Positions 6,828 to 23,721 of a stretch of DNA of 64,000 bases are shown in pieces. The DNA is taken from positions 96,001 to 160,000 of IMG/VR virus record IMGVR_UViG_3300030117_007612. One strand, 5' to 3'. Within the stretch, counting starts at the first letter, position 1, and each line of letters begins with the position of its first letter. The notes under the pieces were generated by a model. That model saw only the letters and a list, made by a program, of their open reading frames with translations, was not told where the DNA came from and did not search any database. The stretch comes from a virus (lineage: Duplodnaviria > Caudoviricetes). The translations under genes were made by a program, and so were the position numbers.

Positions 6828-9800
6828 GTGAAATTTGCACATATCAGTGATACTCACATTAAAAATCTAAAGTACCACTACGAATATCGAGTCGTTTTTG
6901 AGCAGCTTTATGAAAAGTTGCGAGAAGAAAAGGTTGACTACATTATTCATTGTGGCGATGTTGCGCATACGAAAACTCAGATATCACCTGAGTATGTTGA
7001 GATGTGTTCATTGTTTTTTGAGAATCTTGCTAATATTGCGCCAACTTACGCAATTTTGGGCAACCACGACGGCAACTTGAAGAACAGTAGTCGTCAAGAT
7101 GCTTTGACGCCGATATTTAACGCGCTTAATCATCCGAACCTTTTCTTGCTAAAAGATTCAGGCGAAACCATTTTGGATGATAAATTTTGCCTTAATGTGT
7201 TGTCTGTTTTTGATCGTGACAATTGGATCAAGCCGTCCGATTCTGACAAGATAAATATTGCACTTTATCATGGTTCTATATCTAATTGCAAGACTGATAT
7301 AAACTGGACGATGACCAATGGCGAGGATGAAATTGGCATCTTTGATGGCTTCGACTTTGCAATGTTGGGAGATATTCATCGGCGCCAATTCTTAGATGAA
7401 GCCGGCCGAGTATGGTATGCAGGTTCCACAGTACAACAGAACCATGGCGAAACAAATGACAAGGGAATATTGATTTGGAATATTGAATCTAAGGACGATT
7501 GGGACATCGACCCTGTTGTTTTCAAGAATCCCAAACCCTTTGTAACGTTGGAGTTAACACAGAAAGGCAGAATGCCTAAAGGTGCAGATGTTCCGGAAGG
7601 CGCGCGCCTTAGACTGGTAAGCAATAACAACTTGCCGTTAAGTGTTATGAAGCGCGCCATTGACATCGCGAAGCATCGTTTTAAACCAGAAAGTGTTACG
7701 TTTCTTAATCGTGCCGCCGGCGAGCGCGGTGATGTGAGTGAAATCACAGACACACTTAAGACTGAGAATCTTCGTGATATAAATATTCAAGAAGAATTGA
7801 TGGATGAGTATCTAAAGGAGTACCAAGTTGACTCTTCCACAATGGAAAAGATTTACGAATTGAATCGAAAATATAAAAAGCTGGTAGAAAATAGCGATGA
7901 TATATCGAGAAACGTGAATTGGAGACTGACAAATTTTGAATTTGATAACTTGTTTAATTACGGAGAAGGCAACAATGTAAGCTTTGAGGATCTCAATGGG
8001 ATTACAGGGATCTTCGGCAAGAACTATTCTGGCAAGAGTAGCATTATTGATGCTGTACTTTGGACACTCTTTAATACAACCTCGAAAAACGAACGTAAGA
8101 ACCTCAATGTCATTAATCAGAACAAAGAGTTCTGCCGCGGCAAACTGACAATCGATGTAGGCCACCTAAGATATACAGTCGAAAGAACAGCTGAAAAATA
8201 TATTAAGCGCCTAAAGGGTGAGGAAACTCTAGAAGCCAAGACCGATTTAAATTTTGAGGTGCATGATCAGGCGACTGGGGAAACTGTATCTTTAAATGGC
8301 CTGAGTCGCAACAACACTGATGCCAACATACGCCGTCATTTTGGTGAGTGCGAAGATTTTCTAATCTCTTCAATGGCCTCACAGCACGGTGCTCTATCAT
8401 TCATTGACGAAGGCTCAACACGCCGTAAAGAAATAATTGCAAAGTTTCTTGATTTAGAGATATTTGAAAAGAAATTTAAATTAGCTAAAGAGGATTCGAC
8501 TGATCTTAAGGGCGCCCTCCGTCGCTTAGAGAGCAGAAATTACGACGAAGAGATAGTCGAGGCCTCCGCCACCTTAGAAGAGAAGAGGGTGGAACTGAAG
8601 CGCCACGAAACTCAATGCGAAATTTTAAAAACAAAAATCGACGATATTACAGAAACGTGTGAATCACTAAAGAATAGTATTGAGGCGATTCCAGAAGAAG
8701 TTATAAATGTAATAGACACAAAGCGGGAAATCAAAAAGAGAAACATGCAGATCGCCTCCTTAGAATTGGAAGGCGCAGAGAACAAAAACATATTAATATC
8801 CAAAAAGGCTACATCTGAAAAGATCATAGAATACCTTGCGAAAATTGATATTGATGCACTGAATCGACAAAACAGCATAATTACAAACCTATCAACACAA
8901 AGACAAGAACAGGAAAACATTTTAAATGATCTGCTCTCCCAAATAGAACAGATTGAGAAAAAGTCAAAATTGCTAGATGGGATTCCTTGCGGCTCTGATT
9001 ATCCTCAGTGTAAGTTTATTAGAGACGCTAATGTCGCTGTTGCAAACTTGCCACACGTGCAACAAGAAAGAGAAAACTCACAAACTCAGTTTAAAATTTT
9101 AGATAAAAAACTATCAAGCATGCGACCGAAAACAGTCGAAGAGCAGCTTGAAAAATACAATCTAGTTTTGCAAAAACAAAACACCGTTACTCATGAGATT
9201 GCGGATTTAAATTTATCAATCGAAAAAGGTCAAGCTTCAATTGAAAGATTAACCTATGAATTGAAAGAGTTTGAGCAGAAAAAACAAAAATATGAAGAAA
9301 ATAAAGAAGTCATCGAAAACTTTGAAGAGTTCTCATCAGAATTAGCAACTTGTCATGCCAACTTAGAGAAGGCAGAGAAACAATACAACAAATGTGAAAA
9401 TCAAAAACTTGAACTTTACAAAGAAATAGGATCATCCGAAGAACGCGTACAAAGCATAAAAGAACAAAAACAGGAATACTTATCTTTACGGGAGGAGTAT
9501 TCAGCCTATGATCTTTATATGCGTTGCATGCATACATCTGGCATTGCTTACGATATTATTAAACGCAAACTTCCAGTTATCAACCAAGAGATCGCGAAAG
9601 TCCTAGCAAACATCGTTGACTTTGAAATATTCTTTGAAGATTCTGGAAAGAAATTTGATATTTTTATCAAGCACCCTCGACACGAACCGAGACCGATTGA
9701 AATGGCATCCGGCGCCGAAAAAACCATGGGGGCCATGGCAATTCGTTTGGCGCTCTTGAGTGTTTCGTCGTTGCCCAAGAGTGATTTATTTATTCTTGAT

Positions 9801-9977
9801 GAACCCGGCACAGCATTAGATGAAGAAAATATGGAAGGTTTTATTCGTATTTTGGAACTAATTAAAGTGTATTTCAAGAACGTCTTGTTGATCTCGCACC
9901 TTGACTCTCTCAAGGACTGTGTTGATATGCAAATTGTGATTGAAAAGAAATCAGGATATGCAAAAGTAAATCAATAG
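6828..9977 (+). CDS. fused Mre11/SbcD nuclease - Rad50/SbcC ATPase (gp47-gp46-like)
   Basis: Phosphoesterase motifs DTH, GD, GNHD, HG, GDIH; then Walker A GKNYSGKSS, coiled coil, signature SGAEK, Walker B ILDEP, H-loop ISH, all in one ORF. Confidence 0.92.
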   Translation: MKFAHISDTHIKNLKYHYEYRVVFEQLYEKLREEKVDYIIHCGDVAHTKTQISPEYVEMCSLFFENLANIAPTYAILGNHDGNLKNSSRQDALTPIFNALNHPNLFLLKDSGETILDDKFCLNVLSVFDRDNWIKPSDSDKINIALYHGSISNCKTDINWTMTNGEDEIGIFDGFDFAMLGDIHRRQFLDEAGRVWYAGSTVQQNHGETNDKGILIWNIESKDDWDIDPVVFKNPKPFVTLELTQKGRMPKGADVPEGARLRLVSNNNLPLSVMKRAIDIAKHRFKPESVTFLNRAAGERGDVSEITDTLKTENLRDINIQEELMDEYLKEYQVDSSTMEKIYELNRKYKKLVENSDDISRNVNWRLTNFEFDNLFNYGEGNNVSFEDLNGITGIFGKNYSGKSSIIDAVLWTLFNTTSKNERKNLNVINQNKEFCRGKLTIDVGHLRYTVERTAEKYIKRLKGEETLEAKTDLNFEVHDQATGETVSLNGLSRNNTDANIRRHFGECEDFLISSMASQHGALSFIDEGSTRRKEIIAKFLDLEIFEKKFKLAKEDSTDLKGALRRLESRNYDEEIVEASATLEEKRVELKRHETQCEILKTKIDDITETCESLKNSIEAIPEEVINVIDTKREIKKRNMQIASLELEGAENKNILISKKATSEKIIEYLAKIDIDALNRQNSIITNLSTQRQEQENILNDLLSQIEQIEKKSKLLDGIPCGSDYPQCKFIRDANVAVANLPHVQQERENSQTQFKILDKKLSSMRPKTVEEQLEKYNLVLQKQNTVTHEIADLNLSIEKGQASIERLTYELKEFEQKKQKYEENKEVIENFEEFSSELATCHANLEKAEKQYNKCENQKLELYKEIGSSEERVQSIKEQKQEYLSLREEYSAYDLYMRCMHTSGIAYDIIKRKLPVINQEIAKVLANIVDFEIFFEDSGKKFDIFIKHPRHEPRPIEMASGAEKTMGAMAIRLALLSVSSLPKSDLFILDEPGTALDEENMEGFIRILELIKVYFKNVLLISHLDSLKDCVDMQIVIEKKSGYAKVNQ

Positions 9978-10975: not shown

Positions 10976-11351
10976 AAAAGATCTAAATTACATCGCCGCC
11001 GTCGAAAAAGCAATTGCAAAGAAATATGGACAAGAGACGGTACAAAATCCGAAAGGAAATTGGGACGATGAAAAGGAAAAAGAGTACCTTCAACAGATCA
11101 AGGAATTTGCGCAAAAACAACGCAAAATCGAAGAAGGCTCAGAGAAGGTAGATGTTAATGGCATTTTGGTGTCAAAAAAACTACTTAATAAAGAACCCGC
11201 AGGTTCTTGTCCTGTTTGCGGAAAGTATCTTTCTATTGCAAAAGATGACATATGCATCGCAAAATTTAATTGCTGCTTTCAGTGTTACGTAAAATGGGTC
11301 GAGGATCGAGAGGAAAGATGGGCATCTGGATGGCGACCAAATGAAGATTGA
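10965..11351 (+). CDS. zinc-finger hypothetical protein
   Basis: CPVC...CIAKFNCCFQC; ATG 10965 preferred over the ORF-track start. Confidence 0.6.
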   Translation: MKNEKDLNYIAAVEKAIAKKYGQETVQNPKGNWDDEKEKEYLQQIKEFAQKQRKIEEGSEKVDVNGILVSKKLLNKEPAGSCPVCGKYLSIAKDDICIAKFNCCFQCYVKWVEDREERWASGWRPNED

Positions 11352-11649
11352 CGACATTAGAGATTTGATAAGACAAGAGCTTCTTAGTAGAACAAATCAT
11401 GACGTACGTGAAATTAAAAACGAAGTAAATGAGCCACAGCCACCCGACAATGAAGGTCGCATGGCGAAGTCGGAATTATATAAGCTTAAGAATTATGCAG
11501 AAAAGGTAAGCGACATGATAAGCGACACAGAACAACTAGAAGGGTGGGTCCAGTCAAAAATAACTAAGGCTGCTGACTACTTAAGCTCAGTTGCGCACTA
11601 TTTAGAGTATGAGAAATCAAGAGAGTTTTCTCAAGAAGGAGAAGAATAA
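11341..11649 (+). CDS. hypothetical protein, possible internal head protein
   Basis: N-term MKIDDIRDLIRQEL variant of the shared motif; QLEGWVQSKITKAADYL core. Confidence 0.55.
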   Translation: MKIDDIRDLIRQELLSRTNHDVREIKNEVNEPQPPDNEGRMAKSELYKLKNYAEKVSDMISDTEQLEGWVQSKITKAADYLSSVAHYLEYEKSREFSQEGEE

Positions 11650-12206
11650 TGGCTTCAGTGATGGACGTAATCAAAGGATTATCGCAAGCCGCAGCCAATG
11701 TTTACGACGGAGCATTGGATGAAAATGGTAATTATTTAGACGTTGGACTTAGAAGAGAGGAAGGCAACCCCCTAATTGATGAGAGAGTCATTGATGGTTT
11801 TAATGTGAAATTTCATGGCAATAGAATGATACTTTGTTATCATACCGCCGTCAAATTAAAAGAAATCCACAACGGCGGCTTTGAATCAGAAATAGAAAGT
11901 CAAATAAACCAAATCGCCAAATTTTTAAAAACTGAATATCGCAAAGTTACAGGCGACAATGTTTCGCTCACTGCGGAAGGTGAAGTTGACATTTTGGTGC
12001 AAAGCGCTGGCTATCATCGCTCTTGGATTCAGGCTTACATGACTTATAACATTGGCGGCATTGAAGAAGTTCAAACTGTTGGCCAAGCTAGTGAAGATTC
12101 TATGGAGGCTTCTTATCGAAAATTTCTCGATCAAGGAGGCTTTAAAGAGAAGGAAACAAAATCTCGCAAAGCCAATGTTAAAGCAAAGGATAATAAGGAT
12201 AAATAA
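11649..12206 (+). CDS. hypothetical phage protein
   Basis: 185-aa ORF, translationally coupled, normal codon usage. Confidence 0.65.
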   Translation: MASVMDVIKGLSQAAANVYDGALDENGNYLDVGLRREEGNPLIDERVIDGFNVKFHGNRMILCYHTAVKLKEIHNGGFESEIESQINQIAKFLKTEYRKVTGDNVSLTAEGEVDILVQSAGYHRSWIQAYMTYNIGGIEEVQTVGQASEDSMEASYRKFLDQGGFKEKETKSRKANVKAKDNKDK

Positions 12207-12209
12207 ATT

Positions 12210-12659
12210 ATGAAACTTACAAAAGAAATACTTAGAGAGATCATTAAGGAAGAAATAGAGAATGCCCGCGATGTGTCAGAGGGCCCTATTGGCTCCGTTG
12301 CCCCTATGTCCACTACAGGCCAACGACGCCCACGTGGCACTGCTCCAAGTCGACCAGTAGAGGAGCCGGATGCTGCAGTGGGTGGGGAAACGACCATGGA
12401 AATTGGAGCTGTCGAAAACATTAAATCGAGACTGGATCAATATATCGCCCAGCCCGGAAACCAAATGAAAGGAAGATTCAACGGTTTGCTCAATTTTCTT
12501 GATGCATATTTGGCCTCTCAAGGTTTGGGCGTTAAAGGCGATTATAGAAAAGAGCGCGGTACCGATACACAACGTAGAACTAAATCAAGACAGGTTGTGC
12601 AAAGAGGCAAAGGCTCTGCTGCTGGCATTGGATTAAAAGAAGGAGAATCCGAAGAATGA
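12210..12659 (+). CDS. MKITxxxLRxIIxEE-family protein
   Basis: Begins MKLTKEILREIIKEEI; contains VSEG and LKEG. Confidence 0.65.
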   Translation: MKLTKEILREIIKEEIENARDVSEGPIGSVAPMSTTGQRRPRGTAPSRPVEEPDAAVGGETTMEIGAVENIKSRLDQYIAQPGNQMKGRFNGLLNFLDAYLASQGLGVKGDYRKERGTDTQRRTKSRQVVQRGKGSAAGIGLKEGESEE

Positions 12660-12754
12660 AAAACGTACTACACAGATTAGCAAACTTATTTAATAGCGAA
12701 CACTGCTGCTGCTGCTGCGGCTGCTGTAGTTGCGCCGGAGCATGTTGCAAATGA
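12656..12754 (+). CDS. 32-aa cysteine-rich peptide (not in ORF track)
   Basis: MKNVLHRLANLFNSEHCCCCCGCCSCAGACCK*; ATGA overlap with both neighbours. Confidence 0.65.
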   Translation: MKNVLHRLANLFNSEHCCCCCGCCSCAGACCK

Positions 12755-12981
12755 AAATCACAAAAGAACAATTGCGTAAGATTATTATGGAGGAGATATC
12801 CTCTGAAGGTGTTGTTGACATGGGCGGCGAGCCAGTTGTCACTGGCCCAGAAGGTGATGCATCCGGAGAGGCCCAAGCCGGCGCTCGCCTTAAAGATGTT
12901 ATTTTATATCTCGAAGGTAATGAAAGAGACGACTTGGCCGAACCACTTCGCAAGATTCAAGAAATGCTAGAGATGCTATAA
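12751..12981 (+). CDS. MKITxxxLRxIIxEE-family protein
   Basis: Begins MKITKEQLRKIIMEEISSEG at ATG 12751. Confidence 0.65.
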   Translation: MKITKEQLRKIIMEEISSEGVVDMGGEPVVTGPEGDASGEAQAGARLKDVILYLEGNERDDLAEPLRKIQEMLEML

Positions 12982-13009
12982 TTATCGGCAGCAGGATAGG
13001 AGACTCACA

Positions 13010-13438
13010 ATGAAGATTACTGAATCGGAAATCATAAAATATATTAAAGAAGAGATGGAGTCTGATTCGGCTTTAGCTGATGCAATTGTAAAACTGTCCA
13101 ATAAGATAGACAACCTAGACGTGAGCATTGACTATCTGGCATCGGCTCTTACTGGCGAAGATGTTTTAGATATTGGCCTCGCGCAAAAAGCTTTTGGCAG
13201 ATTCAGAGCCGCCCCAACTGTAAGTGTTGGCCGTTCTGACATGTCAGAGGGCCTCGTTACAGAAGATGTCTACGACGAGGCGAAGCAAATTGCTAAAGAT
13301 CCCAAACAGATAGATCATCTCTTCCAGCTTCTACAGGCCGTCGTTAGCGTAGCTGCTGATATGAATATGATGGGTATGCGGCTAATGAAATTAGGAGATC
13401 TTCACAAACATGCGACAGAAAAATTCAAAAACAATTAG
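13010..13438 (+). CDS. MKITxxxLRxIIxEE-family protein
   Basis: Begins MKITESEIIKYIKEEM; SD AGGAG upstream. Confidence 0.65.
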   Translation: MKITESEIIKYIKEEMESDSALADAIVKLSNKIDNLDVSIDYLASALTGEDVLDIGLAQKAFGRFRAAPTVSVGRSDMSEGLVTEDVYDEAKQIAKDPKQIDHLFQLLQAVVSVAADMNMMGMRLMKLGDLHKHATEKFKNN

Positions 13439-13685
13439 TAAGTTACAACTTAGGCAGATTGTCAAAGAAGAACTTAGGGCCGTTTTGAACGAAGGGCATT
13501 ATCATGACATGGGCGGCGAAGACGAAATGTACGATGCTTTGGATCCACATGGCATTGCAAAGATGTCAGATGCACAATTAGTAGATGCTGCCTACCGTGA
13601 TGGAATTGAAGAAATTCTAGTTTTAGACAACGAAGGCGATCTTGTAAATCGTGAAGAAGTCATAATGGCACTGAAAAATGTATGA
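13410..13685 (+). CDS. MKITxxxLRxIIxEE-family protein
   Basis: KTISKLQLRQIVKEELRAVLNEG near the N-terminus; start uncertain. Confidence 0.55.
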   Translation: MRQKNSKTISKLQLRQIVKEELRAVLNEGHYHDMGGEDEMYDALDPHGIAKMSDAQLVDAAYRDGIEEILVLDNEGDLVNREEVIMALKNV

Positions 13686-15265
13686 GCTTTCAATTAACCA
13701 AAAAAGATATGATGAAAGAGATCCTAAAGTGCGGCAAGGATCCGACATACTTTCTTAATACATATGCAAGAATTTCACACCCCCTGCACGGCACTATACC
13801 TTTCAGAACATACGATTTTCAACAAGAATTACTAGACGATTTTAATGATTATCGTTTTAATGTGATATTAAAAGCCCGCCAGTTAGGTATTTCGACCATA
13901 ACTGCGGGCTATGTTGTTTGGCTGATGTTGTTTCATCGCGATAAAAACGTTTTGGTTATGGCAACCAAGTTTGGTACCGCCGCAAACCTCGTTAAAAAAG
14001 TCAAAAGCATAATGAAAAACCTGCCTGACTTTATAAAAATTGCAGAAATTTCTGTTGACAACCGTACATCATTCGAATTATCAAATGGATCTTTTATTAA
14101 AGCTTCCTCAACTTCTGGTGATGCTGGTCGTTCTGAATCACTCTCCCTGCTTGTGCTTGATGAGGCTGCTCACATTGAGGGACTAGAAGAGTTGTGGACC
14201 GGTCTATATCCCACGCTGTCAACGGGTGGTAGGTGTATTGCACTATCAACCCCAAATGGTGTTGGAAATTGGTTTCACAAAACATACATGGAAGCTGACT
14301 CTGGGGCAAACAATTTTCACCCCACGAACTTACCATGGGATGTGCATCCAGATCGCGATCAGCAATGGTTTGAAAAAGAGACAGCAAATATGTCTAGACG
14401 ACAAATTGCTCAAGAGCTAGAGTGTAATTTTAATACTTCTGGCGAAACTGTAATTGATCCGGAAGATTTGGAAAAGCTAGCAAAAAACGTGAGAGAGCCA
14501 AAATACAAAACAGCATTTGATAGAAATTTTTGGATTTGGGAAGAGCACGATCCATCGTGCAATTATCTCATGGTTGCTGATGTTGCAAGAGGCGATGGGA
14601 CCGACTATTCTGTATTTCACATTATCAAGCTTGAAACTTTAGAGATCATAGGGGAATACCAAGGGAAACCCACACCAGACTTATTTGGCAATATGATTAA
14701 TCAAATAGGTAGAGAGTTTGGAGATTGTTTGGTTGTTGTTGAAAACAACAGTATCGGATACGCTGTATTGGAAAAATTGGTTGAGTTTGGATATCCGAAT
14801 GTTTACTATTCAGTTAAGTCAACACATGAATATATCGATCAATATCAAGCCGAAAGCCAAACAAATGCGGTGATGGGCTTTTCAACTACTTCAAAGACGC
14901 GTCCTTTAATAGTTGCCAAACTTGAAGAATTCATAAGAAATGAACTAATTACTGTGAATTCTGGTCGTTTAATAAACGAAATGAGGACTTTTATTTGGCA
15001 GTACGGAAAACCACAGGCCATGAGAGGGTACAACGATGACTTGGTTATGTCGTTGGCAATTGCATGTTGGATTAGGGACACCGCACTCCAAGTTAACCAA
15101 AGAAGCATGGATTATCAAAGGGCTTTTTTAAGCTCTATAGTCTACACAAAAACGAGTTTTGATACTACAATTAAGGGAATGGACAAAAACAAAAGCACAA
15201 AAATGACCGATAGAATAGCTGAACAAAAAGAAAGCTATGATCATTTAATGTGGCTAATAAAGTGA
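13682..15265 (+). CDS. terL: terminase large subunit (T4 gp17-like)
   Basis: ILKARQLGIS (Walker A region), LVLDEAAHI (Walker B), LSTPNG coupling motif, nuclease DVARGDGTDYS and NDDLVMSLAI. Confidence 0.95.
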   Translation: MSFQLTKKDMMKEILKCGKDPTYFLNTYARISHPLHGTIPFRTYDFQQELLDDFNDYRFNVILKARQLGISTITAGYVVWLMLFHRDKNVLVMATKFGTAANLVKKVKSIMKNLPDFIKIAEISVDNRTSFELSNGSFIKASSTSGDAGRSESLSLLVLDEAAHIEGLEELWTGLYPTLSTGGRCIALSTPNGVGNWFHKTYMEADSGANNFHPTNLPWDVHPDRDQQWFEKETANMSRRQIAQELECNFNTSGETVIDPEDLEKLAKNVREPKYKTAFDRNFWIWEEHDPSCNYLMVADVARGDGTDYSVFHIIKLETLEIIGEYQGKPTPDLFGNMINQIGREFGDCLVVVENNSIGYAVLEKLVEFGYPNVYYSVKSTHEYIDQYQAESQTNAVMGFSTTSKTRPLIVAKLEEFIRNELITVNSGRLINEMRTFIWQYGKPQAMRGYNDDLVMSLAIACWIRDTALQVNQRSMDYQRAFLSSIVYTKTSFDTTIKGMDKNKSTKMTDRIAEQKESYDHLMWLIK

Positions 15266-23115: not shown

Positions 23116-23721
23116 ATGGGTAAGGTACTTTTACGAGAATTTTATGAATTATGTGAAGGGGGCGTCTGTCAGGATCTTTTAACCGAGGAAGAGAAGAGGT
23201 TTGTGGCCGGCGGCGGTATGATTTTGTCTGGAATTATGCAAAAATCAGACACTGTTAATGGAAATGGAAGAATTTATCCACACAAAGTTCTTGTTCGTGA
23301 GGTTGAAAACTACTCTAAGCTTGTAAAAGAGCGACGAGCGCTCGGAGAATTAGACCACCCAGACGACTCAGTGATCAATCTTAAGAATGCATCACACCTT
23401 TGCACCAGCATATGGTGGGAGGGGCAAGATGTCATGGGCAAGGTTAGAATTTTGGACACACCATCTGGAAAAGTACTGCAAGAGCTTGTAAAATCAGGTG
23501 TTAGCCTCGGAATTTCTTCAAGAGGAATGGGTTCTGTTAAAGAAAGCCAAAATGGCACAATTGTTGAAGATGATTTTCAGTTAATTTGTTTTGATTTTGT
23601 ATCAGAACCCTCAACACCCGGCGCCTACATGATGAAAGAGTCTAAAAGCTTAAAAGAATCAAACATCTTCACAAAAGCAGATAAAATCAACAGATTAATC
23701 AACGAGGCTCTAGATGAATAA
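23116..23721 (+). CDS. prohead core protease (T4 gp21-like)
   Basis: NGNGRIYP, GELDHP (His), GISSRGMGS (Ser), DFVSEPST. Confidence 0.93.
   Translation: MGKVLLREFYELCEGGVCQDLLTEEEKRFVAGGGMILSGIMQKSDTVNGNGRIYPHKVLVREVENYSKLVKERRALGELDHPDDSVINLKNASHLCTSIWWEGQDVMGKVRILDTPSGKVLQELVKSGVSLGISSRGMGSVKESQNGTIVEDDFQLICFDFVSEPSTPGAYMMKESKSLKESNIFTKADKINRLINEALDE

Follow-up and report, generated by a model that had tools for sequence, protein, structure and literature searches.

A predicted family of ten-cysteine microproteins in large marine phages, with a tentative affinity to metal-binding peptides

Among the metallothioneins, SmtA employs a Cys9His2 ligand set for four Zn ions, and Cup1 arranges ten cysteines around a Cu(I) cluster. 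The streptolysin S-type core of SagA contains a Cys run, and enzymes of the M50 family process some peptides, for example, YydH. In phages, nothing pertinent on either a metallothionein or a polycysteine peptide was found in the literature searched. In mycobacteria, polycysteine short ORFs are cysteine-responsive attenuators, a mechanism that depends on a duplex between the Cys tract and the Shine-Dalgarno (SD) sequence as well as on constrained codons, such that silent changes break it (bioRxiv 10.1101/834739). The short ORF described here belongs, as judged by comparative sequence analysis, to a real, widespread, undescribed and almost unannotated microprotein family of large marine myovirus-like phages.

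The window, that is, the 64,000-nucleotide stretch of DNA analysed here, was taken from a viral record of 203,368 bp (bases 96001-160000), which is rated complete by CheckV. The microprotein gene (positions 12656-12754 of the window, + strand) consists of 32 codons plus TGA, with the ATG at 12656 and the TGA at 12752-12754. The first half of the encoded peptide is the leader (residues 1-16; 12656-12703, + strand), a predicted amphipathic helix, with the invariant His16 as the final residue, and the second half is the Cys core (residues 17-32; 12704-12751, + strand) of the form C5-G-C2-x-C-x3-C2-K. The 10 Cys are packed in the last 16 of the 32 residues, whereas no other ORF, whichever frame of the 203-kb genome it is read in, has more than 6 Cys per 16 residues; in the long ORFs of this genome, Cys accounts for 0.94% of the codons. 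Part of the core is encoded by a (CTG)5 trinucleotide run (12703-12717, + strand) that is read in frame as Cys codons. An SD sequence, AAGGAG (12640-12645, + strand), is located 10 nt 5' of the microprotein ATG. On one side, the TGA of the upstream gene (12210-12659, + strand, 149 aa) overlaps the microprotein ATG (ATGA), and on the other side, the microprotein TGA overlaps, in the same manner, the ATG of the downstream gene (12751-12981, + strand, 76 aa), with a GGAG inside the microprotein ORF (12737-12740, + strand) 10 nt 5' of that ATG. Both neighbours start with the same N-terminal tag, MK[IL]TK..L..II.EE, and no promoter- or terminator-like sites interrupting the gene run were found on the + strand around the microprotein gene. 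The TerL gene (13682-15265) and the portal gene are located further along the window.

Among the 80 loci of TerL relatives that were compared, the ORF is present only in the near-identical L002, with one R-to-K change, and this restriction initially spoke against its status as a gene. The nearest relative apart from L002 is L003 (TerL 96%), in which the homologues of the upstream and downstream genes show 58% and 89% identity, respectively, and these flanking genes abut, with exactly 95 nt missing. The 95 extra nucleotides in the window extend from the ATG of the ORF through the base preceding the next ATG, and in the alignment with L003, the block is bounded by a 7-nt direct repeat, ATGAAAA, with the left copy at 12656-12662 and the right copy, the start of the downstream gene, at 12751-12757 (both + strand). 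In three complete relatives with ∼74% TerL identity, the ten-Cys motif was found nowhere in the genome. The microprotein gene, with its 95 nt missing from L003 and the family absent from these three complete relatives, is an accessory and mobile one. The ORF of the window is spanned by contigs that come from three independent studies and show neither indels nor length variation at the (CTG)5 run; in a variant contig of 4.7 kb, all 31 differences counted over 881 nt fall outside the ORF, again without indels. Neither a blastn search with the 4 kb around the ORF nor a tblastn search with the consensus peptide yielded a match among the cultured phage records, although in the latter case, the low-complexity filter may hide one.

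The wider family was searched for with degenerate DNA patterns, that for the Cys core followed by a stricter one. The Cys-core pattern brought out short ORFs with a conserved non-Cys leader amid microsatellite noise, and with the stricter pattern, the design was detected in 76 viral contigs, 2 MAG contigs and more than 120 marine metagenome contigs. The matches listed for these three sources include at least 193 complete ORFs and at least 157 distinct peptides of 31-49 aa, nearly all with a GGAG-type site 6-10 nt upstream of the start. The shared design consists of an amphipathic leader, M-K-x-x-L-H-R/K-L-x-N-L-F-N-x-x-H, followed by the Cys core. The circularity inherent in the core-based search was removed by running a leader-only pattern, and the Cys core followed in 48 of the 48 matches, including six that the core pattern had missed because Gly22 was replaced by K, Y, D or T, with the cysteines retained, or because one Cys was shifted.

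Purifying selection on the peptide can be gleaned from the leader codons 2-11, which were unconstrained by the search pattern: the synonymous divergence is near saturation (pS 0.76) compared with pN of 0.24, whereas the same bases read in the remaining two frames give no comparable difference (pS/pN 0.47/0.34 and 0.21/0.40). Residues H6, L8, N10 and L11 of the leader, as well as Cys26 of the tail, are nearly invariant but their codons vary, and every Cys position is split ∼50:50 between TGC and TGT, which matches the neutral 1:1 usage in the genome. The presence of the (CTG)5 run and the absence of the ORF from L003 and most of the TerL relatives would be compatible with a chance ORF that arose from a trinucleotide repeat in an intergenic spacer. 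However, this run is peculiar to the copy in the window, the other members mix TGC and TGT freely, and the ∼190 homologous ORFs under purifying selection show that the ORF is more than a chance occurrence. Together with the indel-free population contigs, the family data refute the chance TGC-microsatellite explanation, which is next to impossible. The first-pass annotation had allowed for the prospect that relatives would show nothing but a variable TGC repeat with frameshifts; instead, the peptide is conserved, the codons vary and there is no slippage, so that the ORF is, on this comparative evidence, a selected protein-coding gene. The same annotation had described a real gene below the annotation cut-off, a 32-codon Cys-rich ORF with a helical leader, a Cys core and ATGA overlaps with the two neighbours, located immediately upstream of terL, and in all these respects it holds up; the ORF also has a strong ribosome-binding site, and the genes around it are small and tag-bearing. 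Its proposal of translational coupling on both sides carries over to the family in one direction: a same-strand gene starts -14 to +30 nt from the microprotein stop in 63 of the 65 loci, so that downstream coupling is general, whereas the upstream overlap is specific to the genome of the window.

The two halves of the peptide differ sharply in composition. The leader is 44% hydrophobic, with conserved residues H6, L8, N10, L11, F12 and N13 in the family alignment and a hydrophobic moment of 0.59 compared with the shuffle mean of 0.29; His16 is invariant and His6 is present in 62 of the 63 sequences. Among the non-Cys residues of the core, 96% are small or polar (G/S/K/A/E/T/N/D-type) and 3.6% are hydrophobic or aromatic. 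The core opens with C5-G-C2-x-C and continues into tails of the form x3-CC, x2-C-x3-C or CC. The three tail Cys were not imposed by the search pattern and come in several spacings, and the total is still 10; among the matches listed, exactly 10 Cys are present in 149 of the 157 peptides. AlphaFold run with the family alignment predicts a helix at residues 2-11 only (mean pLDDT 67) and no fold for the Cys core (pLDDT ∼60-65). In ∼9 of the 157 peptides among the matches listed, the C-terminus is an AT-hook-like basic tail, R-R-G-R-P-R-K, that scores below the cut-off against the Pfam AT_hook profile (E = 0.18); such members (L228, L232, L238, L248, L284, L308, L362 and L373) are 45-49 aa long, and the mapped ones are located directly after a DnaG-type primase gene. 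At the other extreme, two viral contigs that have diverged from each other share, in equivalent surroundings, a 13-codon leaderless mini-ORF (L113:418-462 and L173:11295-11339, both + strand) that is nearly all Cys core (M-K-x-x-C5-G-C2-K), with ATGA overlaps on both sides. Assignment of the peptide as a lipoprotein or a signal peptide was dropped because there is neither a lipobox nor a hydrophobic core.

The family is nearly invisible in the existing databases. No match for the peptide was found in Pfam, NCBIfam or PHROGs, a PDB search with the family profile found nothing, and the ESM Atlas gave no usable match. A collection of 5.8 billion protein clusters contains one family member, and a library of 1.84 billion representatives contains eight, some of them mis-called fusions.

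The carriers are one group of large uncultured marine phages, in which the gene is single-copy and occupies several positions; their nearest cultured relatives by TerL are Flavobacterium phage immuto (47%) and Microcystis phage Mel-JY01 (44%). This phage group has a conserved landmark in a fused SbcD/Mre11-SbcC/Rad50-like gene of 1049 aa (window positions 6828-9977; cluster c5). The genomic contexts were counted in 173 dereplicated loci among the matches listed. In 30 of these, the microprotein gene directly follows a DnaG-type CHC2 zinc-finger primase gene, and these primases are only ∼50% identical to one another. A gene for an M50 peptidase, a membrane metalloprotease, is found nearby in ∼16-17 loci (within 1.3 kb in 16, and 35-45 nt upstream in ∼9), a 120-aa gene without an assigned function in 23, and IscU/IscA genes in ∼11; in further loci, the gene follows that for PolIII alpha or the tail sheath. 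The neighbourhoods are otherwise heterogeneous, and no enzyme is a constant neighbour. The iscU gene is present in 10 of the 28 carrier records, and in 8 of the 10 records with both genes, the peptide gene and iscU are 0.1-2.1 kb apart, in three or more arrangements within one sub-lineage; by our arithmetic, the chance expectation of such proximity is ∼2.6% per 170-kb genome. Neither iscU nor iscA was found in the genome of the window. Together, iscU and iscA occur in about one-third of the peptide-bearing records (L178, L217, L230 and L263; G004, G008, G018 and G023), usually accompanied by a conserved uncharacterised gene (cluster c19). Elsewhere in the same genome, beyond the window itself (G000:C1:49783-53319; L264), three consecutive genes encode a sulfotransferase, a radical SAM enzyme of the B12 type (565 aa) and a cytidylyltransferase of the CMP-sugar type, probably a glycan or nonulosonate modification cluster.

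Across the family, more than half of the genes next downstream open with the tag MK[IL]TK..L..II.EE, compared with only ∼3-4 genes with this tag in the entire 203-kb genome by the motif used here. In the window, the genes that start at 11341, 12210, 12751, 13010 and 13410 (11341-13685) are unrelated and share the N-terminal tag alone. Downstream neighbours with this tag are also found in L091, L092, L207, L223, L251 and other loci, and a second class of tag, MK.[IL].ENW[RK][RK][FY][LI], opens ∼11 other neighbours. Among the TerL relatives, the stretch between a conserved 185-aa gene (11649-12206) and terL holds from 0 to ∼1.6 kb of genes. The region upstream of terL resembles an array in which genes for tagged, possibly capsid-targeted proteins are shuffled. 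The window also encodes, at ∼23185-23661 (G000:C1:119185-119661), a prohead protease of the T4 gp21 type (Peptidase_S77, E = 5e-34), consistent with cleavage of the tagged proteins at I-x-E sites. Capsid targeting of the Cys peptide itself was dropped because this peptide has neither the tag nor an I-x-E site. Arrays of tag genes together with the peptide gene are also carried by two contigs of ∼100-116 kb assigned to Halobacteriovorax and Ca. Pelagibacter MAGs (L262, PBIO01000025.1, and L263, NHHP01000006.1), which are probably phage contigs mis-binned into these MAGs.

What could be the function of such a peptide? The best reading, which we hold tentatively and put a little short of an even chance, is that the family consists of metallothionein-like metal-thiolate or Fe-S-related microproteins. 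This reading is best supported because the set of ten Cys plus His is fixed and the spacing is flexible, the core is metallothionein-like, no maturases of the types searched for were found in the complete carrier genomes, and the gene is linked to iscU and primase genes. The traits expected of a metallothionein, that is, low mass, high Cys content and few aromatic residues in the metal-binding part, are all present, with Phe12 and His6/His16 belonging to the leader. The same reading is weakened by several observations: five consecutive Cys are atypical of the known metallothioneins, in which the motifs are C-x-C, C-C and C-x-x-C; no metallothionein family (for four members searched, no Pfam match, including SmtA/BmtA PF02069, at E up to 10) and no solved structure shows a sequence match; AlphaFold gives no core fold; IscU/IscA are absent from the genome of the window; and the neighbourhoods are heterogeneous. 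The iscU linkage may reflect merely a shared island of accessory genes and the shared ancestry of the respective genomes. The predicted complex of the IscU of L178 with the peptide of the adjacent gene and a 2Fe-2S cluster has a score of 0.01, which counts neither for nor against the reading. Under the metal-binding scenario, the N-terminal amphipathic helix would pack against, or position, the C-terminal Cys segment, and the ten cysteines together with the invariant His16 would wrap a small metal-thiolate cluster, either metallothionein-like (Zn or Cu(I)) or of the Fe-S type. During infection, the peptide could keep metal or sulfur buffered or sequestered, or pass it on, for the needs of the phage, the candidates being, in one lineage, Fe-S assembly together with IscU/IscA and, in another, the zinc-finger primase module. 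The gene itself would move as a start-to-start cassette to positions before other small genes.

The order of a strongly conserved leader and a core with a CCCCC run that recalls the streptolysin S-type cores also suggests a RiPP precursor, with the 16-residue leader recognised by a maturase, the Cys core modified to thiazoles, thioethers or thiooxazoles and the leader removed, by enzymes that the host supplies or that belong to unrecognised phage families; the M50 genes located 35-45 nt upstream in ∼9 loci could be invoked as processing enzymes. The first-pass annotation entertained maturation by distal phage enzymes, and the genomes contradict this. In the complete genome of the window, YcaO (PF02624), MNIO/DUF692 (PF05114) and a SagB-type nitroreductase/dehydrogenase (PF00881) were not found, which makes a phage-matured RiPP unlikely, and the search suggested at the time, for YcaO, SagB or radical SAM genes in the rest of the genome, retrieved a single radical SAM gene, 57 kb away, between the sulfotransferase and cytidylyltransferase genes of the sugar-modification cluster, with a B12-type product that falls far below all equivalog cut-offs. 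The other eight complete carrier genomes encode neither radical SAM enzymes nor YcaO. Accordingly, none of the enzymes that accompany the precursor in TOMM systems (YcaO and FMN dehydrogenase) or in methanobactin/bufferin-type systems (MbnB/DUF692) was detected in the genome of the window, and the linked radical SAM maturase of SCIFF/ranthipeptides and sactipeptides was not found in the nine complete carriers. Also at odds with a RiPP are the lack of a constant enzyme neighbour, the lack of a GG/GA-type cleavage motif and the AT-hook-like tail of some members, which would be odd in a RiPP core; overall, with host enzymes included, this explanation appears unlikely. A redox or structural peptide is doubtful, too. 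Through disulfides or metal bridges, it would join components of the virion by cross-links or compact the DNA as protamines do, or else serve as a sacrificial thiol buffer, and the even Cys count (10), the position of the gene in the head-module region of the window, by terL, the portal gene and the tag-bearing genes, in a genome with a gp21-type prohead protease, and the basic AT-hook-like tails of the members mapped beside primase genes are in line with such a role. But vicinal Cys-Cys disulfides are strained, the peptide has neither the N-terminal tag of its neighbours nor any (L/I)-x-E site, and most of the members are found outside head modules, in the primase, polymerase, IscU, M50 and tail-sheath contexts.

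The coupling to the next gene raises another, quite improbable alternative, namely, that the ORF is regulatory, with the ten Cys codons tying its translation to the supply of charged tRNA-Cys, the stop-start overlap gating the next gene by the cysteine/sulfur status of the host and the peptide itself being secondary. This has the mycobacterial polycysteine ORFs as a precedent (bioRxiv 10.1101/834739) and gains from the position of the ORF immediately upstream of a co-directional, in more than half of the cases tag-bearing, gene in 63 of the 65 loci, from the 13-codon leaderless versions with their ATGA overlaps and from the MFE fold of the window, in which the downstream SD is paired to the Cys tract. 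However, in tests against mononucleotide shuffles and in-locus controls, and also dinucleotide shuffles, there is no excess of RNA structure (z = +0.15 for the window; family mean z = -0.62 compared with -0.31 for the controls), and pairing of the Cys tract with the downstream ribosome-binding site through constrained nucleotides, as in the attenuators, was not found, the Cys codon choice being free. Codon sensing would not require the conservation of leader amino acids under free synonymous change, nor would it explain the Cys count fixed at 10 or tails that include AT-hook extensions; furthermore, the ORF has an SD of its own and is not leaderless, and the downstream genes are not cysteine-metabolism genes. 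In L003, the site equivalent to the AAGGAG at 12640-12645 serves the homologue of the downstream gene of the window, without the microprotein ORF. A combination of the two functions, in which the Cys codons would gate reinitiation onto the next gene, typically one for a tag-bearing and probably capsid-targeted protein, via charged tRNA-Cys and the peptide would act as a thiol, metal or Fe-S carrier, such that the gene is a dual-purpose sulfur gauge, is highly improbable; if true, phages of sulfur-limited ocean bacteria would carry a cassette-like sensor that registers, through translation, the sulfur status of the host.

Returning to the metal or Fe-S binding interpretation, the gene would, if this is correct, be a phage-encoded metallothionein-like auxiliary gene, a type for which no description was found in the literature searched, and would link phage infection to the marine trace-metal and sulfur economy. 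Members of the family abound in viromes from the ocean, those of Tara and of many marine JGI samples included, but are almost absent from protein databases, and the family represents a test case for microprotein annotation as well as a clear example of start-to-start cassette shuffling in the hypervariable small-gene arrays of phages.

Compared with the described systems, the microprotein and its locus combine features of several. The T4-type hypervariable internal-protein loci, relevant for the context only, likewise are arrays of unrelated small genes that share an N-terminal tag, their content also differs between close relatives, and a gp21-type protease is encoded in the genome of the window as well; unlike the T4-type capsid-targeted proteins, the Cys peptide carries no tag, and the role of the tag in these phages is putative. 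With SagA and other streptolysin S-type TOMM precursors, the family shares the same short layout, in which the leader precedes an uninterrupted series of Cys, but it lacks the Ser/Thr-rich continuation and a recognised cleavage site, its genomic contexts vary, and unlike in TOMM systems, there is no cyclodehydratase/YcaO in the nine complete carriers and no SagB-type dehydrogenase in the genome of the window. The Ms5788A/Rv0815A class consists of similarly short ORFs with a long run of Cys codons coupled to the gene directly downstream; unlike these, the phage ORFs come with an SD of their own and encode a conserved peptide part besides the Cys, the choice of Cys codons is free, and there is no conserved RNA duplex. 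From the metallothioneins (SmtA/BmtA, the small fungal Cu-thioneins and Cup1), the family, in which metal binding is putative, differs by the five-Cys run, the conserved amphipathic helical leader and the phage origin. It resembles them in its tiny size and Cys content of ∼31%, in a core of Gly, Ser, Lys, Ala and Glu with almost no aromatic or hydrophobic residues, in the constancy of the ligand count combined with flexible spacing and, with ten Cys and one or two His, in a ligand count that can be set beside those of SmtA and Cup1.
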